Positions 158 through 31,226 are shown, counted from the stretch's first letter. The stretch: DNA of 64,000 nt from Patescibacteria group bacterium (GCA_041665345.1 JBAYJA010000003.1:39202-103201); one strand, 5' to 3'. Numbers and translations: made by a program. The notes: generated by a model not told the origin, from the letters alone.

Positions 158-560
158 GGCGTTTTCCTCCTAATATAAAGTATTGGTACACATCATCCAG
201 ACCAGTCGCTTGTAGACCAGGTGGAATATTTTGCCAGATTTTAAGAACAGTCTTCTCGCAACCTAACAACGTAGGTTTTTACAGAAGGCTGTTCTTAAAC
301 GGAGTGCCAGTTTCTTTACTTGATTTCTATACTTATTAAAGTGCAGACGTGACAAACAAACCTATCATTTATGGATGGGTTTGTCAAGCCCACGGGGGTG
401 GAGGCTGCACGATCCCCGTGAATGTCCTATCTACATGAGTTGCTAAAAAGTAAAAACTTTTTCCCTATTTTCTTACGCTGAAAGATTCGATCTTCGCCTA
501 AGGGTTCAAGAGGTTGTTCTTGGGAACATGTTTTCCAGGTGCCATCACCCCAGTGATATA

Positions 561-590
561 GAAAAACGACCACTTGCTGGTCGTTTTTTC
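561..590 (-). terminator. rho-independent terminator downstream of dnaN (bidirectional hairpin)
   Basis: Stem acgacca/tggtcgt (565-571/577-583) with loop cttgc, flanked by an A-run upstream and a T-run downstream. It lies 13 nt past the dnaN stop. Confidence 0.5.
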
Positions 591-602
591 TTTGTCTTGT
601 AC

Positions 603-1712
603 TTACTGCCGAATGGGCATGAGGAGGTATCGGTACGTTGCCTGACCCTTCCCTGTTTGCTTTGGCAAAATGAGACCAGGACCTTTTTCATCGTTCAATT
701 CCAGAAGGCACTCTTCGGTCTGCAAAGCATTCACTCCATCCAAAAGGTACCGCCAGTTAAAGACGATGCTCCCGCCTTTGCCTTGCACCTGTACATCAAG
801 ATCGGTTTCACTGGTACCCACCTGCGCATTGGCAGCATTCAGGTGTAGTTGCTTGCCGTCGGTATCGTACGTGAGCGTCACATCGTTAATCCCTGCTTTG
901 CAGAAGAGGCTCACTTGGCGTACCACTTTTGCAAAAGCGGAGGTTTCAACCGTGCAGCTGGTGGTGAAACTCTCAGGAATAATTTGGGTGTAGTCTGGGA
1001 ACTGTCCCTCAATGAGCCGCGACACCAGCTCCGTATCACCAACCACGAAACTCACCTGGCTTTCACTCAGACGAATCACCACATCATCAGTTTCCGGGAG
1101 GATGCGGTTTAGCTCTTGCATGGTGCGGCTGGGGAGAATCACACTCTGCTCTTCTTTGCTGGTGGGAAGCGGGATGGTGACCTCTGCCAGGCGGAAGCTA
1201 TCTGTTGCCGCCAGGGTGAGTACTTGGCCCTGCAAGCGCATGAATACCCCATTCAACTCTGGACGAGCATCATCTGCCGCGACCGCAAAAACGACTTGAT
1301 TTAAAGCGGTTTTACACACTTTTGCCGGAAGGACGATGGATACCCCACCCTGCACCTTTGGAATGACTGGAAAATCTTCGGCAGGTAATCCTTTGAGTAC
1401 AGTTTTGGAAGCGCTGCTGGAAATATGGAGATCGGCTTCTTGTAAGGCGCAGGTAACATTCCCTGACCCAAGGAGACTAAGGTACTCATGGAGTAAACGC
1501 GCTTGCACGGTAAAACTCCCTGGTACTTCCACTTTTCCACGGACGTGGGTGGTCATGCCAATTTCTAAATTTGTGGTACTGAGGGTAATACCATCCGCTT
1601 CAGCGGTGATGAGAAGATTTTTTAGGATTGGAAGAGTAGTTGTCTTCCCAGTAATGTGGCTCACTGCATTGAGGGCTGTGGTTAAGTTCTCCTGGGTGCA
1701 AGTAAATTTCAT
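603..1712 (-). CDS. dnaN: DNA polymerase III beta subunit (sliding clamp)
   Basis: 369 aa with three-domain beta-clamp architecture (MKFTCTQENLTTALNAVSHITGKTTTLPILKNLLITA...). It sits immediately downstream of dnaA in the canonical dnaA-dnaN order. Confidence 0.93.
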   Translation of the reverse strand: MKFTCTQENLTTALNAVSHITGKTTTLPILKNLLITAEADGITLSTTNLEIGMTTHVRGKVEVPGSFTVQARLLHEYLSLLGSGNVTCALQEADLHISSSASKTVLKGLPAEDFPVIPKVQGGVSIVLPAKVCKTALNQVVFAVAADDARPELNGVFMRLQGQVLTLAATDSFRLAEVTIPLPTSKEEQSVILPSRTMQELNRILPETDDVVIRLSESQVSFVVGDTELVSRLIEGQFPDYTQIIPESFTTSCTVETSAFAKVVRQVSLFCKAGINDVTLTYDTDGKQLHLNAANAQVGTSETDLDVQVQGKGGSIVFNWRYLLDGVNALQTEECLLELNDEKGPGLILPKQTGKGQATYRYLLMPIRQ

Positions 1713-1921
1713 ATATAGAGAGAAAGAGAAGAAGAGAGTAGAGGTTGGGGAAAAGTGGATAGCTTTTTGAAAGAGGAAAATGTGTTACCTGGGTTGTGTA
1801 TGTATCGCGAGAAAACTTTTAGGTTTGGTGTGTGACTTGTGGGTAGTGTGTGCGGACGAATTGGGGAAAGAATTTTCATCCACATTTTTCTTTTTTCATG
1901 CACACGTCATCCACAAGAACT
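1713..1921. promoter_or_regulatory. candidate oriC / DnaA-box cluster between dnaA and dnaN
   Basis: TCATCCACA at 1876-1884 and 1908-1916 (8/9 to TTATCCACA), AGTGGATAG at 1755-1763 and TGTGGGTAG at about 1838-1846. An AT-rich tract ttttcttttttc lies at 1885-1897. Confidence 0.45.
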
Positions 1922-3298
1922 TCACGTGTTATACAATCGCTGGCGAATGAGTTTTACATCCTGCTGCATTTTTTGGTCCTCCTTAATTTGCTTGGAGACT
2001 TTATCAACGGCGTGCATGGCAGTGGTATGGTCTCGGCCACCAAGTTCCTCACCAATCGTTGGGAAAGACGCGTGAATTTCTTCCCGCATGAGGAACATGA
2101 CGAGTTGGCGTGGCCGCACAAGCTCCTGGCGCCGGCTTTGGCTCAGCAAATCAGAGACTTTAATATCGTAGTACTGGCAAACCGCGCCAATGAGCTGCTT
2201 GGGTGTTACCGCGTGCTGGCGCTTCACCTCAGCCGCCTGTGCCACCGAGGACAGCACTTCTTTAATACTCGTGAGGGTTGGTGGGTCATTCCGCAAGCGC
2301 TGGATAGCAATAATGCGGTTCAACGCGCCTTCTAGTTCCCGAACATTGTTTTGTATTACAGTGCCAATGTAGTTGAGGATTTCATCACTCAGTGGGAATT
2401 TTCGGTCCGAACACTTTGACCGGAGAATGGCAATGCGGGTTTCAAGGTCGGGCTCTTGGACATCAGCGATCATTCCCCACTCAAATCTGGACAGCAGCCG
2501 AGACTCCAAAGCGGCGATGGCTTTGGGTGGCCGGTCAGAGGAGAGGATGATTTGCTTGTTCTGTTGGTGGAGTGCGTTGAAGGTGTGGAAGAATTCTTCC
2601 TGCGTTCCCTCTTTCGCGGTGAAGAATTGGACATCGTCAACCAGCAGGAGGTCAGCGGAGCGCCAGTGCTCGCGGAATTGCACCATGGTGCCTTTGAAGA
2701 TGGCTTGGATGAAGTCATTCGTGAATTGCTCACTGCTGACGTACAGCACTTTTGCTTTGGGGTTGCGCTTCAGGGCGTCGTTGCCAATGGCGTGCATGAG
2801 GTGGGTTTTCCCTAAACCTGCCCCGCCGTAGACGAAGAGGGGGTTGTACACTTCACCCGGTTTTTCTGCACAGGTCATGGCTGCTGCCTGGGCAAGTTCG
2901 TTTCCTTTTCCCACGATGAAGCTGGTGAAGGTGTATTTGGGGTTCAGGCCGGTTTTTTGGGAAACTTTTGCTGGCATGTCGCCTGCCGGTGGGGTTGCAC
3001 TGTCAATTGACGGGGAAAGCGCGTCGGCGGGCGCGGCTTTCATGCTTTCTACCCGGTAGGTCACTTCCGTGATAGCGTTTTGGGTCAAATGCTGGAGGGC
3101 CTGGAGGATATGCGTGTGGTACTTCTTCTCCAGCCACTCTTTGGCAAAGGCGGTGGGGACGGCAACCAGGACTTTACCTTGTTCGTACGCGCTAATGAAG
3201 GTATTGCGGAACCAGGTGGTGAAATTTGCCTTACTTAAATGCAGCTCTAGTTCGCCTAAAGTTGCTTGCCACAGTTGTTCATTAGATAGCTCAGCCAT
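1922..3298 (-). CDS. dnaA: chromosomal replication initiator protein DnaA
   Basis: 458 aa with the AAA+ Walker A motif GGAGLGKTHLMHAIGN, sensor motifs and a C-terminal DNA-binding domain (...TTAMHAVDKVSKQ...). Confidence 0.96.
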   Translation of the reverse strand: MAELSNEQLWQATLGELELHLSKANFTTWFRNTFISAYEQGKVLVAVPTAFAKEWLEKKYHTHILQALQHLTQNAITEVTYRVESMKAAPADALSPSIDSATPPAGDMPAKVSQKTGLNPKYTFTSFIVGKGNELAQAAAMTCAEKPGEVYNPLFVYGGAGLGKTHLMHAIGNDALKRNPKAKVLYVSSEQFTNDFIQAIFKGTMVQFREHWRSADLLLVDDVQFFTAKEGTQEEFFHTFNALHQQNKQIILSSDRPPKAIAALESRLLSRFEWGMIADVQEPDLETRIAILRSKCSDRKFPLSDEILNYIGTVIQNNVRELEGALNRIIAIQRLRNDPPTLTSIKEVLSSVAQAAEVKRQHAVTPKQLIGAVCQYYDIKVSDLLSQSRRQELVRPRQLVMFLMREEIHASFPTIGEELGGRDHTTAMHAVDKVSKQIKEDQKMQQDVKLIRQRLYNT

Positions 3299-3492
3299 TA
3301 ATTTTTTGGCTAATATTAGCGGTTTTTTGATAATACCATAAAACTGCCTGTGGAAAAACCCCCAGAAAGTGCATGCCTGGGGAATAACCTGTGGATTGCC
3401 TATGGATAACTTTTCCTCCCCTGTTTAGGCCTTTGACTGGGAACGAAAGGGTTGGTACACTGCTCGTACTCCTTACTTTTGATAGGTTTTGT
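3299..3492. promoter_or_regulatory. dnaA upstream region with DnaA-box-like sites (dnaA promoter / second oriC module)
   Basis: TGTGGAAAA at 3350-3358, TGTGGATTG at 3390-3398 and TATGGATAA at 3401-3409 (8/9 to TGTGGATAA). AT-rich at 3301-3345. Confidence 0.4.
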
Positions 3493-3630
3493 ATGCCCAA
3501 GCGAACGTACCAACCCAAGAAGCGCCGCCGCGCCCGCGTGCATGGCTTTCTTAAGCGTCAGCGCTCAGCAACCGGGAAAACCGTCCTCCGCCGCCGCCGC
3601 CGGAAGGGTCGGGCTCGGATTGCGGTGTAA
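3493..3630 (+). CDS. rpmH: 50S ribosomal protein L34
   Basis: [45 protein letters not shown] is a near-consensus L34 sequence. It is the first gene of an rpmH-rnpA-yidD-yidC cluster. Confidence 0.9.
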
Positions 3631-3636
3631 ACGCTC

Positions 3637-4044
3637 ATGCTCCCCCGCCCGCGCCGTCTCCATCGTGAACGGGACATTCTGCGGGTTCTGCGCACCGGCC
3701 CACGGAAGCAAGGCCGGTTGGTGCAGCTAGTGGTTACCCCAAGCGCGCACGTCGTCAGTCGAGCAACTGTCGTGGTGGCAAAATCCGTCCATAAACGTGC
3801 GGTTGTCCGTAACCAAGTGCGCCGCCGCCTCCAAGCGCTGCTCCCAACGTTCCTCCCCCGCACACCAGAGGCAATTGATGTGCTGGTTCGTGCACTCCCC
3901 GCGTCCGCGACTGCCACCTCCGCCACTTTTCGCACCGAACTCACCGCCCTTTGGCCAACCCATGCTCCACGTCTCTCACCTCGTGCGTCGCAGCCTCATC
4001 GGCGCCATCCGCGTGTACCAGCGCGTCCTCTCGCCCGACCATAG
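3637..4044 (+). CDS. rnpA: ribonuclease P protein component
   Basis: Basic protein directly after rpmH with the RnpA-like motif ...[18 protein letters not shown].... The 3' end is uncertain because no stop codon occurs before 4044, and it overlaps the yidD start. Confidence 0.75.
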
Positions 4045-4255
4045 CTGGTTGCGCTACCGGCGCCTGACCCGCGCCTGCCGGTACGAGCCAACCTGCTCCA
4101 TGTACGCCATCACCGCAATTGAACGATTTGGCGTTTTCCATGGGAGCTGGCTAACCTTGAAGCGACTGAGCCGGTGCACGCCCTTCCATACCGGCGGCTA
4201 CGATCCTTGCCCTGACGCAACTCCCACGCCTCACCATCACCCCCTTCACTCGTAA
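3962..4255 (+). CDS. yidD: membrane protein insertion efficiency factor YidD
   Basis: [57 protein letters not shown] carries the conserved YQ..SP...CR(F/Y)xPTCS.YA YidD signature. Confidence 0.8.
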
Positions 4256-4264
4256 TTTGCTCCT

Positions 4265-5044
4265 ATGGAAATCTTCGTCCACATTCTGTACAACCCACTC
4301 TTCAATGGTTTGATGTTCCTCTACCGTTACGTGGGCGACTTAGGTGTGGCGATTATTCTCCTGACCATTCTCATTAAACTCATCCTTTTCATCCCCTCGC
4401 TGTCCGCCATTCGAAGCCAGCAGAAAATGCAGGAAATTCAGCCGAAGATGAAGGAGCTGCAAGCAAAGTATAAGGACAACAAAGAGGAGCTTTCACGGCA
4501 GCTCATGGGTTTCTACAAGCAGCACAAGGTGAATCCTTTTTCCTCGTGCTTGCCACTTCTCATCCAACTCCCCATCCTCATTGCGCTCTACCGGGTGTTC
4601 TTCTCTGGGATCATGGTGGATCCTGCCACCGGCATTTTTTCAGCGGATCAGCTAAGCCACCTCTACCCCGCGCTCCGTGGTTTTTTTGAGGGGTTACACA
4701 TTGATATCATGTTCCTGAATTTTGTGAACCTGACTGCCAAGCACAACATTATTCTAGCTGCGCTCGCCGCAGGCGCGCAGTTCTGGCAGAGCTGGATGAT
4801 GCAAGCCAAGCGTCCACCCAAGGTGCCAGGCGCGAAGGATGAGGACACGGCTGCGCTGGTCAACCGGAACATGATGTACCTCCTGCCGGTCATGACCTTT
4901 ATCTTTGGCTACCAATTCCCAGCCGGGCTGGCACTGTACTGGTTAGCCTCAACTTTCTTCCAAGTTGCCCAGCAGTACTACTACTTCAAGTGGAAGCACA
5001 CCCCGCTCTCCCCTGCCCAGCCTGAGGTGCTGCCAAAGCAGTAA
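4265..5044 (+). CDS. yidC: membrane protein insertase YidC/Oxa1 (short form)
   Basis: 259 aa with multiple TM segments and the conserved YidC core (...MQEIQPKMKELQAKYKDNKEELSRQLMGFYKQHKVNPFSSCLPLLIQLPILIALYRVF...). Confidence 0.9.
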   Translation: MEIFVHILYNPLFNGLMFLYRYVGDLGVAIILLTILIKLILFIPSLSAIRSQQKMQEIQPKMKELQAKYKDNKEELSRQLMGFYKQHKVNPFSSCLPLLIQLPILIALYRVFFSGIMVDPATGIFSADQLSHLYPALRGFFEGLHIDIMFLNFVNLTAKHNIILAALAAGAQFWQSWMMQAKRPPKVPGAKDEDTAALVNRNMMYLLPVMTFIFGYQFPAGLALYWLASTFFQVAQQYYYFKWKHTPLSPAQPEVLPKQ

Positions 5045-5054
5045 GCGAAAACCT

Positions 5055-5351
5055 ATGCGCATGGCCTGGGATCAACTGAAGCACCTACCCGTGGTCACCA
5101 AGAGTGGCCAGCACTTGGGGAAAGTGTCTGGTTTCATTTTTGATCCCGAAGGGCACAGCATTCTGCAGTACGAAGTGAAAGCCAGCATGCCTTTTGGCCG
5201 AACCTTGCTGGTTGCCGTAACTCAAGTGCTGAGCGTTACCAGTCAGCAGATGACAGTAGATGACCTCACTGGTAGCCAACCCGCGGTTGCAGAAAATGCC
5301 ACGTCCGTTCCAGACGCGGCAGGGACACTGGCAGCACTGCGGGATAGTTAG
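5055..5351 (+). CDS. PRC-barrel-like domain protein
   Basis: MRMAWDQLKHLPVVTKSGQHLGKVSGFIFDPEGHSILQYEV has the G.hlG.V.dh.fD...g.I..h.V pattern of PRC-barrel proteins. The start was chosen at the in-frame ATG at 5055. Confidence 0.4.
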   Translation: MRMAWDQLKHLPVVTKSGQHLGKVSGFIFDPEGHSILQYEVKASMPFGRTLLVAVTQVLSVTSQQMTVDDLTGSQPAVAENATSVPDAAGTLAALRDS

Positions 5352-5767
5352 CGGATTGTTGCACGGCGTTGGTCGCCGTGGAGGGATAGTTCTACCCACA
5401 CTGGAACGTATGGGCCCAGGTCAGTTTTCAGTTTCTCTGCCCACTCCACAATCACCAAGGTCTTGGGTCGGCTGCACCAGTGCGCAAGGTCTAACGCCGG
5501 TAGTTCGTGTGGCCCGGCAATCCTGTACGCATCAATATGCACCACCGTGTCGTAGTCCGGGTGCTGGCAGGGGTGGATGTGCTGCAGGGTGTACGTGGGT
5601 GACGTCATGGCGCCAGCCACCTTCAAGCGTTTCCCCATTGCCTGGGTTAGGGTGGTTTTACCAGCACCTAATGGTCCAGTGAGCGCGATGACCCGTGGTT
5701 TTTTTGCCAGCACCTGAGCAGCGAGTGTTCGGAGGTCGGCAAGATTGTGGATGACGTGGGTAGACAT
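5348..5767 (-). CDS. tsaE: tRNA threonylcarbamoyladenosine biosynthesis ATPase TsaE
   Basis: P-loop ALTGPLGAGKTTLTQAMGKRL, TSPTYTL and HIDAYRI motifs typical of YjeE/TsaE. The start was taken at MSTHVIHNL (ATG at 5767). Confidence 0.85.
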   Translation of the reverse strand: MSTHVIHNLADLRTLAAQVLAKKPRVIALTGPLGAGKTTLTQAMGKRLKVAGAMTSPTYTLQHIHPCQHPDYDTVVHIDAYRIAGPHELPALDLAHWCSRPKTLVIVEWAEKLKTDLGPYVPVWVELSLHGDQRRATIR

Positions 5768-5839
5768 AGTGGCACGTCGATTGTAGCACCCCGGTGGGTA
5801 AAAAAAGAGCCCCATCCAGATCTGGATGGGGCATGAGCA

Positions 5840-6517
5840 TTAGAATCGTCGTTGCTTTTCAAACGCAACTTGGATATGTGAGTACTTCACCGCAGTATCA
5901 TCTGTATTCCAAGACGTATTCACGAAAGCGCACTGTACGCACTCGCGTGCCGTTGAATCACTTGCGCTGGTTTTCGCTAGCCGAAGTCGTCGAGAGAATT
6001 CATTTCGGCAAGCTGCGTAGTAGTTTTCTGGAGTCCCGTACAGTTCGTGCACAAGCAGCAACATTTCCGGTTCCGGGGTAAAGGTTGCGAAGATCTGCAC
6101 CTCCTCGGCTGCGGCGGTTTTTGCCGTGTAGTGCGTACCTTCAGTGCTGGGTGTCCATAGAAATTCAACATCGTGGACCACATGCGCCGTACCGTTTTGC
6201 AGAAGCAGTAGGTTGTCTTTGTGCAGTGGGAGCACCATGAAAAGCGGAAGTATGAGCACGCAAACCGTCAACGGTATATTCACAAAGCATGCGATGCTGA
6301 AGATTTTTCTCGTTTTCCCCATGCCGCTTCGAAGCGGGAGAAGTGTGAACATGGCGAAAATGATAGAAGGCAAGACCGCTAGAGTGCTGAACACTTGCGC
6401 TCGCCAATTCCACTCTGGGTACCAGCTCCCCATCACACCACAGAATGCCATTAGCCACAGCACCAAGGTAATCACCGAGGCAATTCTGGCAGAACGTGCA
6501 AGATGCGTTCCTTCCAT
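5840..6517 (-). CDS. 4-TM membrane protein with Cys-containing extracytoplasmic C-terminal domain; paralog of 6645..7319
   Basis: Start chosen at MEGTHL (ATG 6517, AGGAGT SD 6 nt upstream). WYPEWNW, 4 TM segments and a CxxCAFxNxSWNT C-terminal motif are shared with the neighbouring gene. Confidence 0.6.
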   Translation of the reverse strand: MEGTHLARSARIASVITLVLWLMAFCGVMGSWYPEWNWRAQVFSTLAVLPSIIFAMFTLLPLRSGMGKTRKIFSIACFVNIPLTVCVLILPLFMVLPLHKDNLLLLQNGTAHVVHDVEFLWTPSTEGTHYTAKTAAAEEVQIFATFTPEPEMLLLVHELYGTPENYYAACRNEFSRRLRLAKTSASDSTARECVQCAFVNTSWNTDDTAVKYSHIQVAFEKQRRF

Positions 6518-6611
6518 ATAGACTCCTATTTTTTGGTTGTTAGATGGCGATTTCTTTTCAGGCAACCTTATCGCAGTAATGAGGGGTTGTCAATGTGATG
6601 ATTGGTATATA

Positions 6612-6639
6612 GAAAACCCCGCCTGGTGAAGGGCGGGGT
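6612..6639 (-). terminator. rho-independent terminator (minus strand) for 6645..7319
   Basis: ccccgcc/ggcgggg stem (6617-6623/6632-6638) with loop tggtgaa. A-run on plus equals a T-run on the minus strand. Confidence 0.65.
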
Positions 6640-6644
6640 AGTAC

Positions 6645-7319
6645 TTATTTGAGCGTTGTTTTGAAAGTGACTACAATATCTGAGTTTCGGACAAGCTCTT
6701 CGTTCGTGTTCCAAGACAGATTTGCAAAGGCGCAGAAAACACAGGCCGCACTTGAGCTATCCGTCGTCAGCAGCCTTGCATCGCGCAGGCGTTTTAATGT
6801 TGAAAGCTCGCATGCGGTATAGTATTCTTCTGAGGAACGGTACGTTTCGCGCAGGCGTAGAGCGGCACCTGGCTTTGGCGAGAACGTTACGGTAATATCA
6901 CCATCTTCTACCCTGGTGATATGCGGTTCGTAATATATTCCTGTGTAACTTGGCACCCAAAGGATAGAGGTGCTCTTCACAATCGTCGTTTTCCCGTCTT
7001 TCTCAATAAGTAGTTCGCCAGTTTCTGCCGGGATGACGACTAGTAGAGGGAGAAGTGTAAAAAGTACCAAGAACGCCGCATTCACGTAGCAGGTAATCTC
7101 CACCACTCTTTTCAATCGAGAGCACGTTTCAAAGTACACAGTGAATGCGGTTCCGGCAATCAGTATCAGGAATAGGCCGTACATGAGAAAGGTAAAATTC
7201 GTATTGAAATTCCAAGCAGGGTACCACCTAAGAAATGTCGCTCCACCAAGGAGCACCCATGAAGTGATTCCGAGCACGCAAGCTAGCCTTGCTCTCGTAG
7301 AAATTTTTATGTTTTCCAC
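6645..7319 (-). CDS. 4-TM membrane protein, paralog of 5840..6517
   Basis: MENIKIST...WYPAWNFN...CVFCAFANLSWNTNE is conserved with the neighbour. GGAGGA SD upstream of ATG at 7319. A TTGACA-N17-TAACGT promoter lies on the minus strand at about 7345-7373. Confidence 0.65.
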   Translation of the reverse strand: MENIKISTRARLACVLGITSWVLLGGATFLRWYPAWNFNTNFTFLMYGLFLILIAGTAFTVYFETCSRLKRVVEITCYVNAAFLVLFTLLPLLVVIPAETGELLIEKDGKTTIVKSTSILWVPSYTGIYYEPHITRVEDGDITVTFSPKPGAALRLRETYRSSEEYYTACELSTLKRLRDARLLTTDSSSAACVFCAFANLSWNTNEELVRNSDIVVTFKTTLK

Positions 7320-7386
7320 GTCTCCTCCAAGTTTTTAAGGTTTTAATTTTCAGGTACGTTACCACCCAAGAAAGAGCATGTCAAAT

Positions 7387-7413
7387 TAAAACCCCGCCTG
7401 GTGAAGGACGGGG
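7387..7413 (-). terminator. rho-independent terminator for 7437..8153
   Basis: ccccgcc tggtgaa ggacgggg hairpin with an A-run upstream on plus. This is a near-duplicate of the 6612-6639 terminator. Confidence 0.65.
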
Positions 7414-7436
7414 TTGTTGAGAGAGTTGCACACGTG

Positions 7437-8153
7437 CTATTTGCACGGGTCGTCGGAGTATTCCTCATACTCAAGTGAGAAATCAACAATAGTCTTTTTT
7501 TGAGTTCGGACCCTTACATTCTTTACTGTAATCCACTGCGTTTCGTTTTCATACACGGTTAACGTGTAGATCCCAGCAGGGATATTGGCCAGAATATAAC
7601 CGCCAAGGGAATCAGATTCCGCGCGGAATTCTTGGTCGTTGATTTGGATCACGAGACCAATGAGTGGTTCTCGCCCAAATGCACCCTGGCAAAGACCCTC
7701 GATACTGCCAAAGCTTCCAGAATCTGAATCAGTACCTTCTAAAGGCCAAAACCCTACAATGTCTGCGGTTCGACGAAAACCGAAATGTATTTCACCATCG
7801 GTTGTTGCTTCATTCATCTGGATTTTGACATGCGTCGTGGAATCAGGCTTTACAATAACGTACGGAACTTTTTTCGTGCACCAACCGGCCAGTTGTGCGG
7901 TTAGTGAGTATCTCCCCGGCGGCACATTGAGCATTTCAAACGTACCATTGATATCTGCTTGGCAACCCAGTGTCGTTCTGTCAATCTGCACAATAGCGTA
8001 GGGTACACCACCTCCACCATGCTTGTTGTAGACTTTGCCGGTGATTGAGCCAAAGGCAGTAGCGGTAGCTGGTTGATAGCCAATTATCCAGGTTAGTACG
8101 AACGCAATAATTATTTCCGTTCCAAAGTTTGCAATTCGTTTTTGCATGAACAT
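7437..8153 (-). CDS. secreted protein with two carboxypeptidase-regulatory-like (CarboxypepD_reg) domains
   Basis: N-terminal signal MFMQKRIANFGTEIIIAFVLTWIIGYQPATATAFG. Two GKV...G.P.A.V...........G.F....V.PG.Y.L transthyretin-like repeats. AGGAGG SD before ATG 8153. Confidence 0.7.
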   Translation of the reverse strand: MFMQKRIANFGTEIIIAFVLTWIIGYQPATATAFGSITGKVYNKHGGGGVPYAIVQIDRTTLGCQADINGTFEMLNVPPGRYSLTAQLAGWCTKKVPYVIVKPDSTTHVKIQMNEATTDGEIHFGFRRTADIVGFWPLEGTDSDSGSFGSIEGLCQGAFGREPLIGLVIQINDQEFRAESDSLGGYILANIPAGIYTLTVYENETQWITVKNVRVRTQKKTIVDFSLEYEEYSDDPCK

Positions 8154-8196
8154 GTCTTCCTCCTGTTTTAACAGTTTTTAGACGAATAAATACTTC

Positions 8197-8727
8197 TTAA
8201 TCATGGATGAGGCGCACCGCTGCCTGGCCATGACCACTTTTGTATGCCCATTCATTAATCCCCTCGGTATCAAAAACATGTGCCCAGGCAAAGGTCGGGT
8301 CATTGTTGTCCTGTGTCGATGACCAGTACCGACCGGTGGGTTCATACTCTCCCGCATCACTAAAACCGCCAATAATGGCACGGTTTTCATACATCACTCT
8401 GAGTTCGGATCTTGTGGGAAGACGGAATTCTACAGTTACACTAGGCACTTCGTCTGGGATGCGGAAGGATCCATCAAGATGATCTAACCCGTTGAAGTGA
8501 GTAGCGTAGGACATTGCTGCTTCCCATTCCATGGTAGAAGGGAGATCAACTGGGAGTACGTAGAACAGCTTGCCAGTTTCCGGAGAAATGCCAGCGATGA
8601 TCGTCCCATCTGATACTTTACTGCCTATACTGCCGGCAGATACGAACTGGAAACTCGTCGCCCAGGTTAGCGTGAACGCAATGAAAACGATAGTCCGAAA
8701 GTCCGTTATTCGCTTTTTAATGTGCAT
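8197..8727 (-). CDS. DUF1566 (Lcl C-terminal domain-like) secreted protein
   Basis: FRLPTRSELRVMYEN...GRYWSSTQDNNDPTFAWAHVFDTEG... matches the DUF1566 signature (WRLPT..EL...YWSST...AW.V.F..G). Start taken at MHIKKRITDF (ATG 8727, GAGGAGG SD). The N-terminal leader resembles the neighbouring genes. Confidence 0.6.
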   Translation of the reverse strand: MHIKKRITDFRTIVFIAFTLTWATSFQFVSAGSIGSKVSDGTIIAGISPETGKLFYVLPVDLPSTMEWEAAMSYATHFNGLDHLDGSFRIPDEVPSVTVEFRLPTRSELRVMYENRAIIGGFSDAGEYEPTGRYWSSTQDNNDPTFAWAHVFDTEGINEWAYKSGHGQAAVRLIHD

Positions 8728-8774
8728 GTGTTCCTCCTCTTTGCACAGATTTTCTGCTTCTTTCAATGCAGACT

Positions 8775-8803
8775 AGCTTAAGCCCAAGACACAGATTCGT
8801 CAA
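8775..8803 (-). promoter_or_regulatory. sigma70-like promoter (TTGACG-N17-TAAGCT) for the DUF1566 gene
   Basis: On the minus strand ttgacg (8798-8803), a 17-nt spacer containing cttggg, then taagct (8775-8780). The same architecture is duplicated at 9623-9651 and 10430-10458. Confidence 0.45.
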
Positions 8804-8807
8804 ATAA

Positions 8808-8833
8808 GAAAACCCCGCTTGTGCTAGGCGGGG
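8808..8833 (-). terminator. rho-independent terminator for 8861..9577
   Basis: ccccgc ttgtgctag gcgggg hairpin with an A-run upstream on plus. Confidence 0.6.
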
Positions 8834-8860
8834 TTGGTAATAAAGTTACATTTTTTAGTA

Positions 8861-9577
8861 TTAGTCGCACGGACCGTCACTGCCCTCTTGGTAACGCTCG
8901 GTTGAGAACTGCACAACGGTCATTCTTTGCGCCCGAACTTCCACGCCTTTTACCAGCAGTCCGGGCAGCCCAGGCATAGACGCGTAAATTGTGTAGATTC
9001 CAGGCGGTATGTTTTCCAGAGCGTACCAGCCGCTCGAATCGGTTACTGCGCTACATGCCTGGCCGTCAATTTGCACGGTGAGACCTTCGATTTTGTCTCT
9101 ACCCCAAGCATTGCTACAGCGGCCCTGGATTCCGCCAGCATTTTCCGTAGTAGGAACTGCTAGTGGCCAAAATTCCTCAAAAATCATTGCAATGAGGCGA
9201 GGACGGAGGTGCGCCACCATTCCGTCCACAATTTCCTCAAGCCGAATTTCAACGTAAGTGGTGTTATAGGGTGACACAACGACGTTTGGAATATGCGCTG
9301 TTCGCCAGCCCTGCAATTGTGCTGTGATTGAGTACGTCCCCGGCTCAACGCTGGGAAATTCATACTCACCTCTGCAATTAGCCTGGCAACTTATTTGCAT
9401 TCCATCAATACACATGAGCGGAAAGGCCACAGACCCATTCGTACTTTTGTTAATTAGCCTGCCCTTAATTTTGCCAAATGTGTCGGCGACCGCAGGTTGG
9501 TAGCCAGATACCCAAGTCAGCGCGAACGCAACAAGCGCGGAAGTCGTAACATTTGTTACTCGGTTTTGAATGAACAT
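8861..9577 (-). CDS. secreted protein with two CarboxypepD_reg-like domains (paralog of 7437..8153)
   Basis: MFIQNRVTNVTTSALVAFALTWVSGYQPAVADTFGKIKGRLINK.... About 40% identity to the 7437..8153 product over its whole length. GGAGGA SD before ATG 9577. Confidence 0.7.
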   Translation of the reverse strand: MFIQNRVTNVTTSALVAFALTWVSGYQPAVADTFGKIKGRLINKSTNGSVAFPLMCIDGMQISCQANCRGEYEFPSVEPGTYSITAQLQGWRTAHIPNVVVSPYNTTYVEIRLEEIVDGMVAHLRPRLIAMIFEEFWPLAVPTTENAGGIQGRCSNAWGRDKIEGLTVQIDGQACSAVTDSSGWYALENIPPGIYTIYASMPGLPGLLVKGVEVRAQRMTVVQFSTERYQEGSDGPCD

Positions 9578-9622
9578 GTATTCCTCCGGTTCAACAGAAT
9601 AGTTTTTCTTTTAATGCAGACT

Positions 9623-9651
9623 AGCATAATCCCAAGGCGGAGATTCGTCAA
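9623..9651 (-). promoter_or_regulatory. sigma70-like promoter (TTGACG-N17-TATGCT) for 8861..9577
   Basis: RC of cgtcaa (9646-9651) and agcata (9623-9628), with a 17-nt spacer containing cttggg. The surrounding 50 nt are about 80% identical to 8761-8812. Confidence 0.45.
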
Positions 9652-9654
9652 TAA

Positions 9655-9688
9655 TAATAAAAACCCCGCTTGTGCTAGGCGGGGTTTC
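9655..9688 (-). terminator. rho-independent terminator for 9699..10397 (bidirectional)
   Basis: ccccgc ttgtgctag gcgggg hairpin (9664-9684) flanked by an A-run and a T-run. It duplicates the 8808-8833 terminator. Confidence 0.6.
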
Positions 9689-9698
9689 AAAGTGCGGT

Positions 9699-10397
9699 TT
9701 ACTCGCTAATGCGCAGCGGCGCTCGGTTGTCGGAGTTTGCCGTAACCCCAGTTTCCATAACCGAGTCCTCCAGTAAGAACTCAACTTGAGTGGTAGTCCC
9801 GGCCTGCACAATGACGTTGGTAGCGTGCGCTGAGCAGTATCCCGTCAAACTCCCTCGTAGGGAGTATATTCCGGGCGGCACTCGACGGATTTGGTACACG
9901 CCGTCGGCATTGGCCTGGGCGCCCATAGGGGTGCCGTCAATTTCTGCAATAGCAAATGCAATAGCCCGATTTCTTTGGTAGTACAAGATACGACCACCAA
10001 TAACCCCAAAAATTGCAGTGCTGTCATTCCAGCTTTGTGGTCTGGACAACGGATCTTCCAGGGCAATGTCTACCCGAATTACCTTTGCCGTGACTTCGAA
10101 AGTATGGACAATGGTTGGCATGAAGCCATCCAGTTTCGCAGTGAGCTTGTGCATTCCTGGTGGAACGTGGTCAAGGACGTACCAGCCAGTGGAGTCGGTC
10201 TGGGTTTCCAGCGCCGTGCTGTCTACTCGGACAGTGACCTGGGCAAGAGGTGCTGCACCCCTGTCTTTGCGAACGACCTTTCCGGTGATTGTGCCATAGG
10301 TTTCTGCAGACGTGGTTTGGTAGCCAACCACCCAGGTCAGGACGAGCGTAAGTAGGACGGTAATCTTGTAGCTCACTGTTCGTTGTTTTATGAACAT
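9699..10397 (-). CDS. secreted protein with two CarboxypepD_reg-like domains (third paralog)
   Basis: Start at MFIKQRTVSYKITVLLTLVLTWVVGYQTTSAETYGTITGKVVRK (ATG 10397, GGAGGA SD). The same leader and repeat architecture as the other two. Confidence 0.7.
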   Translation of the reverse strand: MFIKQRTVSYKITVLLTLVLTWVVGYQTTSAETYGTITGKVVRKDRGAAPLAQVTVRVDSTALETQTDSTGWYVLDHVPPGMHKLTAKLDGFMPTIVHTFEVTAKVIRVDIALEDPLSRPQSWNDSTAIFGVIGGRILYYQRNRAIAFAIAEIDGTPMGAQANADGVYQIRRVPPGIYSLRGSLTGYCSAHATNVIVQAGTTTQVEFLLEDSVMETGVTANSDNRAPLRISE

Positions 10398-10429
10398 TGT
10401 TTCCTCCGTGTGTGATGTTTTTCCGTTTT

Positions 10430-10458
10430 GATTCACCCCAGCTTAAACCTGGATACAG
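10430..10458 (-). promoter_or_regulatory. sigma70-like promoter (TTGACT-N17-TAAGCT) for 9699..10397
   Basis: RC of agtcaa (10453-10458) and agctta (10430-10435), 17-nt spacer. Confidence 0.4.
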
Positions 10459-10558
10459 GGGAAGTCAATGAACGTCCAACCAGCCCCCCAGACCTCAGCC
10501 CTTGACGCATTGGCTGGGATCTTGTACTTTCAAAGACTTGGCTACGCCAGGTGCATTT

Positions 10559-11701
10559 ATGGAATCCACCCCCTTGCAGCAAACCATAGACCTTGTGAAA
10601 AAAGCCCAGCGCGTGCTGGTGTGCTTGCCGCGCGTGCTTTCTACCGATGCGGTAGCAGCCGGTGTGGCGCTCCACGCTGCCCTGAGCAAGCAAGGGAAGC
10701 AGGTTCGGGTTGTGGCTACGGATATCACCCTCCCGGCCACCCACGCCTTTCTGCCCAAGACCGGAGACATTTCCTCAGAGCTGAATAGCCTGCGGAAGTT
10801 TGTGATTACGGTGGATACTGCCAAGGCGCCGGTGGCAGAATTGAGCTACGACGTGGTGGGTGATAAGCTCAACATTTTTTTGACTCCCAAGCACGGCGCG
10901 TATGAATCAAAGGATGTGCAGCTGGCGCCCATGCCACCCAGCTACGATTGCGTCATTACTCTGGACTGCCAAGACTACGATGATCTGGGCCGGCTGTTTG
11001 AAGAGAACGCAGACTTCTTCTACGCCACGCCGGTCATCAACATTGACCACAGCCCAGCCAATCAGCACTTTGGTCAGGTGAACCTGGTGGACCTGGTGGC
11101 GACCTCCGTGTGCGAAATGATGTATGACATTTTGAAAACTCTGGACGAGCGCCTGATTACCGAGGATGTGGCAACCGCACTGCTCGCTGGTATCATTGCC
11201 AAGACCAAGAGCTTCCAAACTGCCACGGTTACGCCCAAGGCGTTGACCGTCGCATCTGCGCTGATGGCCGTGGGCGCGCGGCGGGATGAAATTATTCGCA
11301 ACCTGTTCCAGACCAAGTCGCTGGCCGTCATGAAACTCTGGGGCCGCGCCTTGGCCCGTCTCCGCGTGTCCGACGATGGCCGGCTGGTGTGGGCCGTGCT
11401 GAACCGCGCGGACTTTGAACGCGCAGGCGCCAATCCCGACTCTCTCCCCGGCATTTTGGATGAGCTGATGGTGAATACCCCTGATGCGAGCATTATGGCC
11501 GTGGTGTACGAAGACCCGGCCGGTGGCGTCACCGTGCTGGTGCAAACCCACCGGACTATTCATGCGGGCAAACTCTTTGCCCAGCAGCAGCCCACGTCCA
11601 TGGGGCATGTGGTGTCCTGGCATGTGGACGGCACCATTGCCGATGCCGAGACGAAGCTGATGCTGGCTCTGGAGTCGTTGCCAAAAGTGAGCGCCAGCTA
11701 A
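10559..11701 (+). CDS. DHH-family phosphoesterase (NrnA-like oligoribonuclease/pAp phosphatase), with variant DHS motif
   Basis: DHH/DHHA1 architecture: ...VINIDHSPANQHFG... (DHS in place of DHH), DLVATSVCEMMY, ...GIIAKTKSFQ.... Start taken at MESTPLQQ because the 10502 ATG overlaps a TTGACG-N17-TACTTT promoter-like site. Confidence 0.7.
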   Translation: MESTPLQQTIDLVKKAQRVLVCLPRVLSTDAVAAGVALHAALSKQGKQVRVVATDITLPATHAFLPKTGDISSELNSLRKFVITVDTAKAPVAELSYDVVGDKLNIFLTPKHGAYESKDVQLAPMPPSYDCVITLDCQDYDDLGRLFEENADFFYATPVINIDHSPANQHFGQVNLVDLVATSVCEMMYDILKTLDERLITEDVATALLAGIIAKTKSFQTATVTPKALTVASALMAVGARRDEIIRNLFQTKSLAVMKLWGRALARLRVSDDGRLVWAVLNRADFERAGANPDSLPGILDELMVNTPDASIMAVVYEDPAGGVTVLVQTHRTIHAGKLFAQQQPTSMGHVVSWHVDGTIADAETKLMLALESLPKVSAS

Positions 11702-11931
11702 CTCTGAGAATTGTTGATTTGATAGTAGAACATAGGTTTTCACAATGTGGGCTTTATGCGGAGCTGTTGATTTTACGAGAAAGTTTTTTGGATCGTAGGC
11801 CGTACGTATTAACAAAATCCTAATGTAATGATACGCTACTTTGTTAGTTGTACATTCACAAACCTGATGCATTGACGCATCCATACTGGATGCTTAGCAA
11901 TGTTATCGCAAAACCTAAAGGAGATAACACC

Positions 11932-12375
11932 ATGAAAAATCCCGTGACCACATCCACCATTGAGGAGGTCGACTACGACGACCCTCAATGGAAGAAGATT
12001 AATGAAAGTCGCTACGCCTACGTTGGCGATGTGACTATCAAGGACTATCACGAGACCCAAATCGGCAAGAAGTCAGTTGTTTTCCGTGAACTTAGGTTCG
12101 ATCATAAGTTCACAGACCACGAGGTATTGGCGAAGGTGGCCAAATTGAAGTGCCGTCTGCCCTCTAGAGCCGAGGCGGAGACGTACATCCGTCGGCGCTA
12201 TACGCCCGAACAGTTGGCGAAGAACCCCCGTATCGCCCTTGTTGGTCCTGCGGTGAAGCTTCACGGCCTCTTGGGTCGGGCCTTCGTCCGTGCTGACGAG
12301 GATGGCGTGCAGTTGTCTAGGCGCTGGCCTGACGATCCTTGGCTTCAGCGGTGCCGCGTCGTCGTCCGCAAGTAG
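11932..12375 (+). CDS. hypothetical protein (paralog of the partial gene at the left window edge)
   Basis: AAAGGAGA SD 6 nt upstream of ATG 11932. MKNPVTTSTIEEVDYDDPQWKKINESRYAYVGDVTIKDYHE... matches the 1..157 product. Confidence 0.55.
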   Translation: MKNPVTTSTIEEVDYDDPQWKKINESRYAYVGDVTIKDYHETQIGKKSVVFRELRFDHKFTDHEVLAKVAKLKCRLPSRAEAETYIRRRYTPEQLAKNPRIALVGPAVKLHGLLGRAFVRADEDGVQLSRRWPDDPWLQRCRVVVRK

Positions 12376-12481
12376 TCCTCATACCTTCGGTCATTTTTTG
12401 ATCGGAGGTATATTTTTACCCACGTGTAGGTGTTGGGCGAAGTAGTAGCCGATCTCTCATGCGCCCTGCTATACTAGGCTC

Positions 12482-14164
12482 ATGGACGAAGACCATGGGC
12501 ACATTCAGGTTGCATCCGAAGAAGCGCAGGAGAAATTCCGTGACAAGCTGACGGAAATTCAACTGAAGGAGAAAGAGCAGCTGGCAGCCAAAAGCGCGCA
12601 GAGCCTGGGCTTGGGGTACATTAACCTCAAGGGTTTTCCCATTGGCCCAGAGGTGCTCATTCTGATTCCCGAAACCGTTGCCCGAGATTTACGGGTGATT
12701 ATTTTCTTTGCCCAGCGGGGCGAAATTCGGGTTGGCTGTGTGGACCCCATGAACGAGCACGTGCTGGCGTTGTTGGAAGCCTTGCAGAGTGAGCGTCACT
12801 CCAATGTGATTCCCTACGTCATCTCGCAGCACAGTTTTGACATGGCGATTCAGCTGTACGCGGCGGTGCCAAAAATTCGGCAGTTTGTGAGTGGCGTACA
12901 GGTGAGCGCGCAAGATATTGCAACTTTTGAAAAAGAGCTGACCACCATTCAGGACGTGGACGCAAAGCTGAAACAGGTGAATCTGACGCAGGTCATTACC
13001 CTGCTCATTGCCGGGGCAATTATTAGCCGCGCGTCAGATATTCACATTGAAGCGGAGGAGAAGGATGTGAAAATTCGTTATCGCATTGACGGCGTGCTGC
13101 ACGACATTGCGCACCTGCCCGTTGCAGACTGGAAGAAAGTCATTTCCCGCATCAAACTCCTCAGTCACCTGAAGCTCAACATTACGGTCAAACCCCAAGA
13201 CGGTCGCTTTACCATTGCCCTGGAGAAGGAGACGATTGACGTGCGTGTTTCCACCCTCCCAACCGCGTATGGCGAAAGCGTCGTGATGCGCTTACTGCGC
13301 TCTTCGTCCGTGGGGTTGAAGTTGGCTGACCTGGGTATGCGGGAAAACACCCTGAAGATTGTGGAAAAGCAAATTCAGCGGCCAACCGGGATGCTCCTCA
13401 CCACCGGTCCCACCGGGTCTGGGAAAACCACGGCGCTGTACGCGTTCCTCACGTTGCTCAACACGCCGGAGAGCAACATCATTACCATGGAGAACCCAAT
13501 TGAATATCACTTGGCTGGGATTAACCAGAGCCAGGTGGATGAAGAGCAGGGGTATACCTTTGCGAAAGGCTTGAAGTCCATTCTCCGCCAAGACCCAGAC
13601 GTGGTCATGGTGGGTGAAATCCGGGACGGCGAAACTGCGGACATTGCGGTGAATGCGGCGCTCACTGGTCACTTGGTGCTCAGCACCTTGCACACCAACG
13701 ATGCGGCCGGGGCAATCCCCCGCCTGCTGGCCTTGGGGGTCAAGCCATTTTTACTCGCCCCAGCACTCAATGCGGTCATGGCGCAGCGTTTGGTTCGCCG
13801 GCTGTGCCAAACCTGCCGAAAGGAAATGACCTTGGACGCTGAGACCTTGCAACGGGTGAAAGAGCTGCTCCAAACCATTCCGCCCGCCAGTGGGGAGAAG
13901 GTGGATTTGGAAAATCTCCATTTCTTCCAAGCTGTGGGGTGTGAGACATGCCACGGTATTGGGTACAAGGGGCAGATTGGGATTTACGAAATCATCACCA
14001 TGAATGCAGACGTGGAAAAGGTCATTCTGGCCAGCCAAGTATCTGAATATGAAATGCGGGAAATTGGCCGAAAGCACGGCATGGTCACCATGGTGCAGGA
14101 TGGGCTGCTGAAAGCCGTGGAAGGCATAACCACGGTGGATGAAGTATTCAAAGTTACTGAATAA
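12482..14164 (+). CDS. pilB: type IV pilus assembly / type II secretion ATPase (PilB/GspE family)
   Basis: GSPII_E N-terminal domain, Walker A TGPTGSGKTT, Asp box and His box, and a C-terminal tetracysteine CQTCRK...CETCHG. Confidence 0.9.
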   Translation: MDEDHGHIQVASEEAQEKFRDKLTEIQLKEKEQLAAKSAQSLGLGYINLKGFPIGPEVLILIPETVARDLRVIIFFAQRGEIRVGCVDPMNEHVLALLEALQSERHSNVIPYVISQHSFDMAIQLYAAVPKIRQFVSGVQVSAQDIATFEKELTTIQDVDAKLKQVNLTQVITLLIAGAIISRASDIHIEAEEKDVKIRYRIDGVLHDIAHLPVADWKKVISRIKLLSHLKLNITVKPQDGRFTIALEKETIDVRVSTLPTAYGESVVMRLLRSSSVGLKLADLGMRENTLKIVEKQIQRPTGMLLTTGPTGSGKTTALYAFLTLLNTPESNIITMENPIEYHLAGINQSQVDEEQGYTFAKGLKSILRQDPDVVMVGEIRDGETADIAVNAALTGHLVLSTLHTNDAAGAIPRLLALGVKPFLLAPALNAVMAQRLVRRLCQTCRKEMTLDAETLQRVKELLQTIPPASGEKVDLENLHFFQAVGCETCHGIGYKGQIGIYEIITMNADVEKVILASQVSEYEMREIGRKHGMVTMVQDGLLKAVEGITTVDEVFKVTE

Positions 14165-14173
14165 GAAAATTCT

Positions 14174-14587
14174 ATGCGAAGAAGTCCTGAAAGAGGTCAC
14201 CCTCAAGAGCTGGAGCAAACCCCAGTTCAAAAATACTGGGCTCAATACAATTTTTCCGGCATGGCGCCGCCTCCCGGCTCACCGGTTGAAGAGCGGTTGC
14301 TGAATATTTGCCAGCAGTATGTGAAGATTTGCCTTGAAACGACGGATTCTGGAAGAGTAACCCCTAGTCCGAATGTGCAAAAAGAAGCACTTCAGCATTA
14401 CACAAAATTAGAATCAGAAAGACGTATGCTGCACAATCAAATAGCAATTATGACTCTCGGGAGTATTCGAAGTAAGCTCCCCGAGCATGAAGCGAAACGT
14501 ATCGCAGATTTTGCAGCACAGGTAACGAATAATGGTTTGCGGATGAATGATTTAGAAGAGCTGCAAAAATCTGAACCAGAAGAGTAA
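14174..14587 (+). CDS. hypothetical protein (low confidence)
   Basis: 137-aa ORF in a lower-GC stretch, followed by a hairpin atagccaac gcgcatgtg ttggctat at 14615-14640. No recognisable domain and no clear SD site. Confidence 0.3.
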   Translation: MRRSPERGHPQELEQTPVQKYWAQYNFSGMAPPPGSPVEERLLNICQQYVKICLETTDSGRVTPSPNVQKEALQHYTKLESERRMLHNQIAIMTLGSIRSKLPEHEAKRIADFAAQVTNNGLRMNDLEELQKSEPEE

Positions 14588-14978
14588 AGTCTCAGCTAGA
14601 TTTGTGTGAAAAAATAGCCAACGCGCATGTGTTGGCTATTTATGAAAATGAATGGGGGTGGCAGTTGAATGTAGGAAGCTACGTCCTTTATAGGTCACAC
14701 AGTGTGACCAACTGGTATCACCCTCATCTTGGTTGAGATACTCCGCTTTTCCTCCTGCTTGAAGCAAAAGGTGCAATTCTTCAAGGGTAGCGGGGTAGAA
14801 AGTTCTTTCTCCAAGATCCCTTGTGTATCCGTGGAGTATTTTCCGCGCCCGGGGTCTGTAGAAAAGACTTCGAAGGGCTCGGTAAGAACAAAGAATAAAG
14901 TGCAATGAACCTCCTTGGAAGAAAACCTAAGCTGCGGAAGAATAGCAGGTAATCCTCCTTCTGTCAAGGGTAATGATA

Positions 14979-24428: not shown

Positions 24429-24562
24429 AAAGAATAATAATCCAGAGACTGCTCGAAGTTTGAATCTGGTAGCCCTTATAGGAAAAGGCTGGAATCAGCT
24501 TATTGTAAGTCTTGTTAGTTTCAACGAGTTATATAGTGGTCAATTTTCCGAGCAACAGCAGG

Positions 24563-28438: not shown

Positions 28439-28441
28439 AAA

Positions 28442-28798: not shown

Positions 28799-28859
28799 AT
28801 TCTAATTATACGCTTAAAACAATTATCTGTGATGATTGCTGTATTATATTCGCGCTAGC

Positions 28860-29111: not shown

Positions 29112-29122
29112 AATGATTCAAA

Positions 29123-30557: not shown

Positions 30558-30576
30558 TTTTAAGTAAAGCTGAATT

Positions 30577-31221: not shown

Positions 31222-31226
31222 ATGCG

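Follow-up and report, generated by a model that had tools for sequence, protein, structure and literature searches.

A strain-variable island of exported-protein cassettes probably built on one promoter and signal-peptide module in a Patescibacteria genome

Introduction

Most Patescibacteria are epibionts that have not been cultured, and they are likely to use surface and secreted proteins for attachment to the host. In a 64,000-nucleotide (nt) stretch of the metagenome-assembled genome of a Patescibacteria group bacterium (GCA_041665345.1, JBAYJA010000003.1:39202-103201; the whole stretch is referred to below as the window), positions 7,437 to 10,458 contain a tandem array of four genes, here designated A, B, C, and D. 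The products of A, B, and D have two CarboxypepD_reg domains each, the product of C has an unrelated, DUF1566-like domain, and all four proteins start with a similar N-terminal leader. This raises the question of why members of two unrelated domain families share the same beginning. An initial annotation of this DNA offered two answers: a dedicated sorting or secretion signal, or leader swapping by recombination. Our analyses favor the latter, and we consider it probable that the array belongs to a small, strain-variable island of cassettes encoding exported proteins, which is based on one promoter and signal-peptide module and includes one domain swap.

For comparison, we used two further assemblies of the window strain (L001 and L073; 99.9% identity overall and 100%) and a related genome with syntenic flanks and a different array (L002; Logan SRR28495930), which encodes the orthologues A' (232 aa), C' (173 aa), and D' (237 aa) and the paralogue G' (384 aa; P0096). 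The seven leaders compared throughout are those of A, B, C, and D in the window and A', C', and D' in L002.

Extent and homology of the shared leader

ORF calling recovered the four open reading frames (ORFs) of the array, all on the minus strand as initially annotated, and the N-terminus common to all four genes was also confirmed: with a profile hidden Markov model (HMM) of the first 33 residues, the array leaders scored 67-72 bits and every other six-frame segment of the window scored 7 bits or less. A leave-out HMM based on the leaders of A, B, D, A', and D' only found the leaders of C (Table 1) and C' (22.5 bits), both aligned from the initiator Met, while its best background hit in 210,000 residues was 7.1 bits. 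Because these scores are far above background, the leader of the DUF1566-like protein is homologous to the leaders of the CarboxypepD_reg proteins. The leader had been described as 35 residues long; its homologous start stands, but the common part comprises only about 31 residues and ends in a T/A/V-x-A site. The FGxIxGK stretch assigned to it, which C does not convincingly share, turned out to belong to the CarboxypepD_reg domain as its first strand (Pfam matches from residue 36). The regular expression given for the leader is valid as a consensus, but only B and D fit it closely.

No further copies of the leader were detected in the remainder of the window (six-frame HMM scan), in an extra 9.4 kb on the left side of the same contig, or in approximately 510 kb of fetched loci, including 62 generic CarboxypepD_reg loci that came from a metagenome scan with a mature-domain alignment. 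As to whether the leader is found on unrelated proteins genome-wide, it is absent elsewhere in the about 73 kb of its own genome that were scanned. When 185,579 species (one genome each) and the JGI metagenomes were scanned for the leader pattern, the pattern matches included no confirmed relative. Among 1.84 billion representative proteins searched with a profile (matches listed down to about 160 bits), the full-length matches in the top 150 were A, B, and D; G' was the only other close relative among them, and the remainder were almost all giant multi-repeat proteins. A word-indexed protein search with the leader alignment gave one candidate and no scored match, this search being insensitive (the D query found just D).

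Cassette structure and recombination

DNA similarity between the paralogues (blastn) is found around the 5' end only. In an alignment of the B and C cassettes, homology is continuous from the hairpin through the promoter, the 5' untranslated region (UTR), and the GGAGGAA ribosome-binding site (RBS) to the leader, and similarity becomes random beyond about codons 31-35. Because homology between B and C ends at the junction between signal and mature parts, C appears to be the 5' module of the family fused to a foreign body, and leader swapping by recombination is borne out.

Comparison with L002 points to the same modules. The window array (A-module-B-module-C) and the L002 array (A'-module-C') differ at two points, both of which are located at terminator-promoter modules, in agreement with the proposal that the whole cassette is the unit of change. 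The single module between A' and C' is a mosaic, its A-proximal half being similar to the window A-B module and its C-proximal half to the B-C module, which suggests that exactly one cassette was gained or lost by recombination inside the repeated module. The earlier statement that the array expanded by cassette duplication is therefore right about whole-cassette change but overstated, since gain and loss of B both fit.

These data are consistent with the following scenario. All leaders would go back to one 5' module, about 210 nt long and made up of terminator, promoter, 5' UTR, RBS, and signal peptide; this module could have spread via tandem duplication or unequal recombination and been joined at least once, at the signal/mature junction, to an unrelated domain. 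Each cassette would then consist of the hairpin terminator of the previous gene, a TTGAC-N17-TAAnnT promoter, a GGAGGAA RBS, and the gene, with A, B, and D encoding small exported proteins of two transthyretin-like beta-sandwich domains and C a lectin-like protein co-transcribed with D. The repeated modules would provide homology for gaining or losing whole cassettes, which would explain the presence of six, four, or no genes among close relatives. We infer that recombination at the modules is the mechanism of change.

Promoters, terminators, and transcription units

The motif TTGAC-N18-TAWGCT was observed three times in the 64 kb (0.05 expected), upstream of A, B, and C only, and motifs of this type are also present at A', C', and G' in L002. 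Near-identical promoters had been reported for these three units; this applies to the B and C modules (87% over 46 nt), but A shares the hexamers only. In a looser form, TTGAC-N18-TAANNT, it has three other sites in the window, and the array motif is therefore probably the ordinary promoter consensus of the organism.

The terminator hairpins after A, B, D, and E (-13.5 to -17.1 kcal/mol) are followed by U-tracts and fall into the two types recognized previously: type 1 is identical at 21 of 21 positions after A and B, and type 2 is 93% identical after D and after E, the latter copy (6616-6639) being outside the coordinates initially given. By contrast, the description of each gene as having its own promoter and terminator fails for C and D. 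A promoter-like site of its own was found for five of the six island genes; C has no terminator, D has no promoter, and only a 43-nt spacer separates them. As this arrangement, including the 43-nt junction, is kept in L002, C and D most likely form one predicted transcription unit. A possible RNA element in the conserved 5' region was rejected (no Rfam match; a consensus fold of -2.8 kcal/mol with no meaningful covariation).

Island variation among relatives and rates of change

The array sequence shows no differences among the window, L001, and L073, which are three assemblies of essentially one strain. In L002 (flank identity to the window: DHH 94%, PilB 96%, and YidC 98%), the array is A'-C'-D'-G', and B, E, and F are absent. 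The site is empty in L076 and L077 (DHH 92.6% and YidC 98.8% identical to the window), where the gap between tsaE and the DHH gene is 107 bp and flanks matching window positions 5768-5789 and 10499-10558 are joined by 25 nt; this empty site defines the bounds of the island as 5790-10498. Six more distant relatives (L003, L004, L006, and L008-L010; DHH 63-67% identical) also have an empty site. Gene number at the site is thus six in the window, four in L002, and zero in L076/L077, in genomes whose DHH and YidC proteins are 92.6-94.5% and 98-99% identical. A comparison of array content between strains had been suggested as a check, and content does vary among close relatives.

Array proteins also evolve rapidly. 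Their amino-acid identity between the window and L002 is 54-76% (A 62%, C 76%, and D 54%) vs 83-98% for the flanks. At the amino-acid level, they change about 10 times faster than the flanking genes, as seen from the rate ratios given below. Together with the differences in gene number, this agrees with the behavior expected of a variable surface or secreted family. Synonymous substitution rates (dS) for the same comparison are 0.5-1.1 in the array and 0.7-1.2 in the flanks; since the two ranges are similar, the A, C, and D orthologues have diverged in place. The ratio of nonsynonymous (dN) to synonymous rates is 0.25-0.31 for A, C, and D (A 0.25 and D 0.31) vs 0.01-0.09 for DHH, PilB, YidC, and TsaE. 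For A, C, and D, respectively, dN is 0.33, 0.23, and 0.29 in the leader and 0.26, 0.13, and 0.34 in the mature part. The leader is therefore not the most conserved part between orthologues, which counts against a sequence-specific sorting tag.

Type of export signal

All seven leaders start with Met-x4-Arg and have one or two further Lys/Arg in residues 4-11, giving a positively charged n-region, followed by an uncharged hydrophobic core of about 14-15 residues (about 12-26; mean Kyte-Doolittle 2.2-3.1). After the core, all seven have a Gln (Q-x-x-x-A) and then Thr, Ala, or Val at -3 and Ala at -1; the putative cleavage triplets are TSA, AVA, VSA, ATA, ASA, VAA, and ASA. The predicted cleavage site ends at residue 31; the leader of C' is shorter by one residue, and its site ends at residue 30. 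By this anatomy, the leader is predicted to be a long, monoderm-style signal peptide of the Sec/signal peptidase I (SPase I) type.

Scans of NCBIfam and Pfam (E up to 1 and 0.1) gave no match to prepilin, Tat, YSIRK, or KxYKxGKxW models. Motifs and the NCBIfam scan ruled out a pilin-type leader: a conserved pair of Gly at -1 and Glu at +5 is missing from the seven leaders, and a Gly precedes the core in just two of them. A Tat-type leader was rejected as well (no twin arginine and no NCBIfam match), and so was a lipoprotein signal for signal peptidase II, as the lipobox L-[AS]-[GA]-C is not conserved and six of the seven leaders have no Cys. The leader of C' (L002 8594-8690) has a lipobox-like VTGC where C in the window has ATSF, and this protein might thus have a lipid anchor in L002 but be secreted by the window strain. 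Among the remaining proteins of the window that are probably exported, N-termini are unrelated to the leader. An example is a GH46 (chitosanase-family) enzyme (37373-38524, starting at 38524), which has a different signal peptide of its own; it is notable that a reduced Patescibacteria genome should encode a secreted glycoside hydrolase.

Alternative explanations

Dedicated leaders recognized by specific machinery are known, such as YSIRK, KxYKxGKxW, and prepilin leaders. The leader might likewise be a sequence-specific sorting signal for a lineage-specific machinery, reused on different cargo domains, as it is common to two unrelated domain families, does not occur on the window's other probable exported proteins, has five invariant positions in seven leaders, and is more similar between paralogues than the mature parts are. 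We nevertheless regard this explanation, which was the other answer given initially, as very unlikely. Between orthologues, leader dN is as high as or higher than mature-region dN and about 10 times that of flanking genes; the anatomy is generic, and the specialized models and motifs described above are unmatched or not conserved; the paralogue G' in the same L002 island uses another signal peptide; the two island versions have no candidate machinery gene in common, L002 having neither E nor F; and in the DNA scanned no genome has more than four carriers, which share one locus. An extended version, in which the leader of about 31 residues would be a lineage-specific tag sending varied cargo (beta-sandwich and lectin-like), for example, to the site of host contact, and the module a portable adaptor that exports captured domains and is exchanged as cassettes between strains, has in our opinion an equally slim chance of being correct. 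It is also conceivable that the N-terminus is an uncleaved signal anchor that holds the domains on the outside of the cytoplasmic membrane. The long n-region (about 11-13 residues), the conserved Trp in the 14-15-residue hydrophobic stretch, and the conserved Gln just past the core would suit an anchor, but we think this improbable considering that a canonical small-x-small site is present in seven of seven leaders, with Pro or Gly before it in most, and that such a core is short for a stable membrane span.

Another possibility is that the DNA module (terminator, promoter, UTR, and leader) rather than the peptide is conserved, through gene conversion and as a portable recombination site, integron-like but without an integrase, with capture and deletion of whole cassettes and their exchange from strain to strain. 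Both points of difference between the window and L002 lie at modules, the L002 module combines halves of the two window modules, and the latter share derived features that the single L002 copy lacks (the hairpin, 21/21, and the spacer GAATCTnnGnCTTGGG), even though B itself is just 42% identical to any paralogue. Two island versions and empty sites, however, cannot show exchange between strains; there is no recombinase in or beside the island; no clear homogenization of leaders within a genome is seen, the A leader being closer to that of D' than to that of A'; and ordinary homologous recombination between any tandem repeats would look identical. This explanation, which largely overlaps with the preferred one, seems unlikely. 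Programmed variation was considered too, either by a diversity-generating retroelement (DGR) targeting the DUF1566 gene or as a phase-variable family switched by a recombinase, as in Mycoplasma. DGRs often target DUF1566 domains and are common among Patescibacteria (PMC11661182), and a conserved 5' UTR and signal peptide across the array family recall the vsp/vpma loci, where both are typical (PMC2268961). A DGR target was ruled out, since the last 204 nt of C (sensitive blastn, 64 kb window) match only themselves, with no template repeat; furthermore, C and C' differ in the C-terminal region no more than overall. A Mycoplasma-like phase-variable locus was rejected in view of the lack of a lipobox, internal repeats, a recombinase, and inverted repeats bracketing promoters; no tandem repeats were found in the scan, nearly every gene has its own promoter, and the sole recombinase in the window is 21 kb away in a separate low-GC element. 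The array is also identical in the window, L001, and L073. We therefore consider programmed variation of either kind extremely improbable.

Several points weigh against a recombining cassette island whose genes were given a common signal-peptide module with one domain swap. Between paralogues, leaders are 35-65% identical and mature parts 28-42%, and R6, L20, W22, Q27, and A31 are invariant in all seven leaders. The leader is thus conserved beyond many signal peptides, and there may be additional constraint or gene conversion. In the same global alignment, signal peptides without relation to the leader (for example, the one of G') reach 22-33%, and we attribute the likeness of paralogue leaders to common descent, the restricted composition of signal peptides, and saturation of the fast-evolving mature parts. 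Furthermore, the difference in B fits either a gain by the window lineage or a loss from L002; export by Sec and cleavage after Ala31 are predictions from sequence; the DUF1566 assignment of C is below the Pfam cut-off, with unusable structure models; and the leader scan of the organism's own genome covered about 73 kb.

Proteins encoded by the island

Coordinates of the island and its features are listed in Table 1. Double CarboxypepD_reg domains (PF13620) in A, B, and D, as initially assigned, are well supported (70-87 bits; Pfam gathering cut-off 32.3). The mature-part profile of these proteins matches Protein Data Bank (PDB) chains of the transthyretin-like domain of carboxypeptidase D, NOMO, and scaffoldin, and they also match the repeat of an anammox S-layer protein. 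The mature part of B is 42% identical to D and D'. G' aligns with mature B and D from end to end of the latter two, and the alignment takes in the conserved Cys residues and the GPC motif at the C-terminus. It differs from them by one more domain on the N-terminal side and by an unrelated signal peptide that is lipobox-like (LLCGC). B, D, D', and G' have a C-terminal acidic motif with a near-terminal Cys (SDGPCD, SDDPCK, SNDVCD, and PEGPCP; window 7437-7460 and 8861-8884, L002 9850-9872 and 11130-11155) and a second invariant Cys at the start of domain 2, whereas A and A' have no C-terminal motif. This conserved Cys pair suggests a disulphide or another C-terminal feature.

The assignment of C to DUF1566 is supported by the hallmark motifs FRLPTRSEL (WRLPT-like) and GRYWSST (YWSST), but its score to Pfam Lcl_C (PF07603) is below threshold (28.2 bits, E = 2.4e-6, vs a cut-off of 34.9), with the match covering model positions 20-116 of 117. 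Weak matches to adhesin_Lcl, FISUMP, and PDB 8q4e were also obtained, and the AlphaFold2 model of C is unusable (pLDDT 32). E and F each have approximately three N-terminal helices that are likely transmembrane according to a low-confidence AlphaFold2 model (E with F; pLDDT 51), and conserved CxxC and YYxAC motifs are present in their C-terminal domain. They occupy the distal end of the island in the window strain only; in L002 the three-domain paralogue G' is found there.

Table 1. Features of the accessory island in window coordinates
Feature	Position	Strand	Description
Whole accessory island	5790..10498	-	Between the tsaE promoter and the DHH-phosphoesterase promoter; 4.7 kb; flanks joined in L076/L077
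Promoter-like site of A	10440..10468	-	TTGACT-N17-TAAGCT; motif also upstream of A' in L002
Gene A	9699..10397	-	232 aa; signal peptide and two CarboxypepD_reg domains; PF13620 86.7 bits, 2 stretches
Leader of A	10305..10397	-	31 codons, MFIKQRTVSYKITVLLTLVLTWVVGYQTTSA; HMM 66.9 bits
Type-1 hairpin terminator after A	9655..9688	-	CCCCGCCTAGCACAAGCGGGG and U-tract; -15.6 kcal/mol, z = -3.4
Promoter-like site of B	9623..9651	-	TTGACG-N17-TATGCT; copy of the C promoter module, 87%
Gene B	8861..9577	-	238 aa; signal peptide and two CarboxypepD_reg domains; 70.2 bits; absent from L002
Leader of B	9485..9577	-	MFIQNRVTNVTTSALVAFALTWVSGYQPAVA; HMM 70.7 bits
Type-1 hairpin terminator after B	8805..8838	-	-13.5 kcal/mol
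Promoter-like site of C-D unit	8775..8803	-	TTGACG-N17-TAAGCT; orthologous module upstream of C' (L002)
Gene C	8197..8727	-	176 aa; shared leader and DUF1566/Lcl_C-like (C-type-lectin-like) domain
Leader of C	8635..8727	-	MHIKKRITDFRTIVFIAFTLTWATSFQFVSA; leave-out HMM 26.6 bits, E = 6e-7
Gene D	7437..8153	-	238 aa; signal peptide and two CarboxypepD_reg domains; 70.9 bits; 43 nt after C
Leader of D	8061..8153	-	MFMQKRIANFGTEIIIAFVLTWIIGYQPATA; HMM 72.0 bits
Type-2 hairpin terminator after D	7388..7417	-	-15 kcal/mol; orthologous hairpin after D' (L002)
Promoter-like site of E	7356..7384	-	TTGACA-N17-TAACGT
Gene E	6645..7319	-	224 aa; no family match; window strain only
Type-2 hairpin terminator after E	6613..6642	-	-17.1 kcal/mol; 93% identical to post-D hairpin
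Promoter-like site of F	6565..6593	-	TTGACA-N17-TAAGGT
Gene F	5840..6517	-	225 aa; E paralogue (31% identity); no family match
Hairpin terminator after F	5809..5832	-	tsaE-proximal edge of the island

Genomic context

The island (GC content 48.7% vs 52.5% in the flanks) lies between the divergent tsaE and DHH phosphoesterase genes, a few kb from dnaA. This is the replication-origin neighborhood: the tsaE side (window 1-5800) contains dnaN, dnaA, rnpA, yidC, a PRC-domain gene, and tsaE, and the DHH side (10500-17555) contains the genes for the DHH phosphoesterase, a PilB/T2SSE ATPase, and ValRS; gene order around the island is kept in all relatives examined. Homologues of the flanking DHH protein are labelled mostly Kerfeldbacteria or Parcubacteria, and the host genome is a Kerfeldbacteria-like member of Patescibacteria. 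No integrase, tRNA, or flanking direct repeat, as expected of an integrative mobile element, was found in or beside 5790-10498, and the defence-system scan gave no match.

A low-GC block was observed elsewhere in the window (24000-32800; 38-41% GC vs 51% overall). It encodes a large serine recombinase (31227-32756, plus strand) that overlaps or abuts tRNA-Glu (32716-32790, minus strand), an Mrr-type restriction endonuclease (27323-28438, minus strand), a SEC-C-motif protein (24563-25702, minus strand), and several ORFs without a family match, and looks like a mobile or defence element integrated at a tRNA. In L001, a run of N and extra bases at 13723-13738 (vs window 2857-2858) splits the dnaA gene call into 147 and 313 aa, which is an assembly artefact and not biology.

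Implications and comparison with known systems

Considering their domain types, export signal, and evolutionary pattern, the island proteins may plausibly act at the surface or in adhesion as part of an epibiotic lifestyle. The locus offers a compact candidate set for host attachment that is strain-variable and fast-evolving, has a promoter for each unit, and includes two kinds of binding-type folds. It also illustrates how a promoter-plus-signal-peptide module may be reused to export a new domain, and it reveals no new secretion route or new kind of genetic element.

At the protein level, A, B, and D resemble the CarboxypepD_reg/transthyretin-like (PF13620) proteins of surfaces, S-layers, and adhesins in having two such domains. 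Their PF13620 relatives are mostly giant multi-repeat proteins, whereas the array form is short and two-domain, has the leader and a C-terminal SDxPC, and is restricted to a small clade. C resembles proteins with a C-terminal DUF1566/Lcl domain (PF07603, C-type-lectin-like fold) in its motifs and in a weak match over nearly the whole model, but it differs from them in its score under the cut-off, and no sign of DGR targeting was found.

At the locus level, the vsp genes of Mycoplasma bovis and the vpma genes of Mycoplasma agalactiae (PMC2268961) are likewise clustered, with conserved coding of the 5' UTR and signal peptide and differing mature parts, and their surface proteins are thought to act in host interaction, a role that we infer for the array as well. 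However, they encode lipoproteins (AAKC lipobox) with internal repeats, and a Xer-type recombinase moves a single promoter, whereas the array has no lipobox, internal repeat, or recombinase and nearly every gene has its own promoter.

In evolutionary behavior, the nearest described analogue is the lpl (lipoprotein-like) cluster in the nuSa-alpha island of Staphylococcus aureus (Tsuru & Kobayashi 2008, PMC2568036). Both loci contain tandem exported paralogues in a strain-variable island and differ in copy number between strains; in both, conserved stretches serve as homology for rearrangement, and the unit consists of an intergenic region and the 5' end of the next gene. The recombination segment of lpl, however, is in the middle of the ORF and the products are lipoproteins, whereas here it is a terminator-promoter-signal-peptide module, the predicted signal is of the SPase I type, and one array member has an unrelated domain. 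The locus is thus an ordinary but clean case of a known pattern, in which tandem exported paralogues diversify by recombination.

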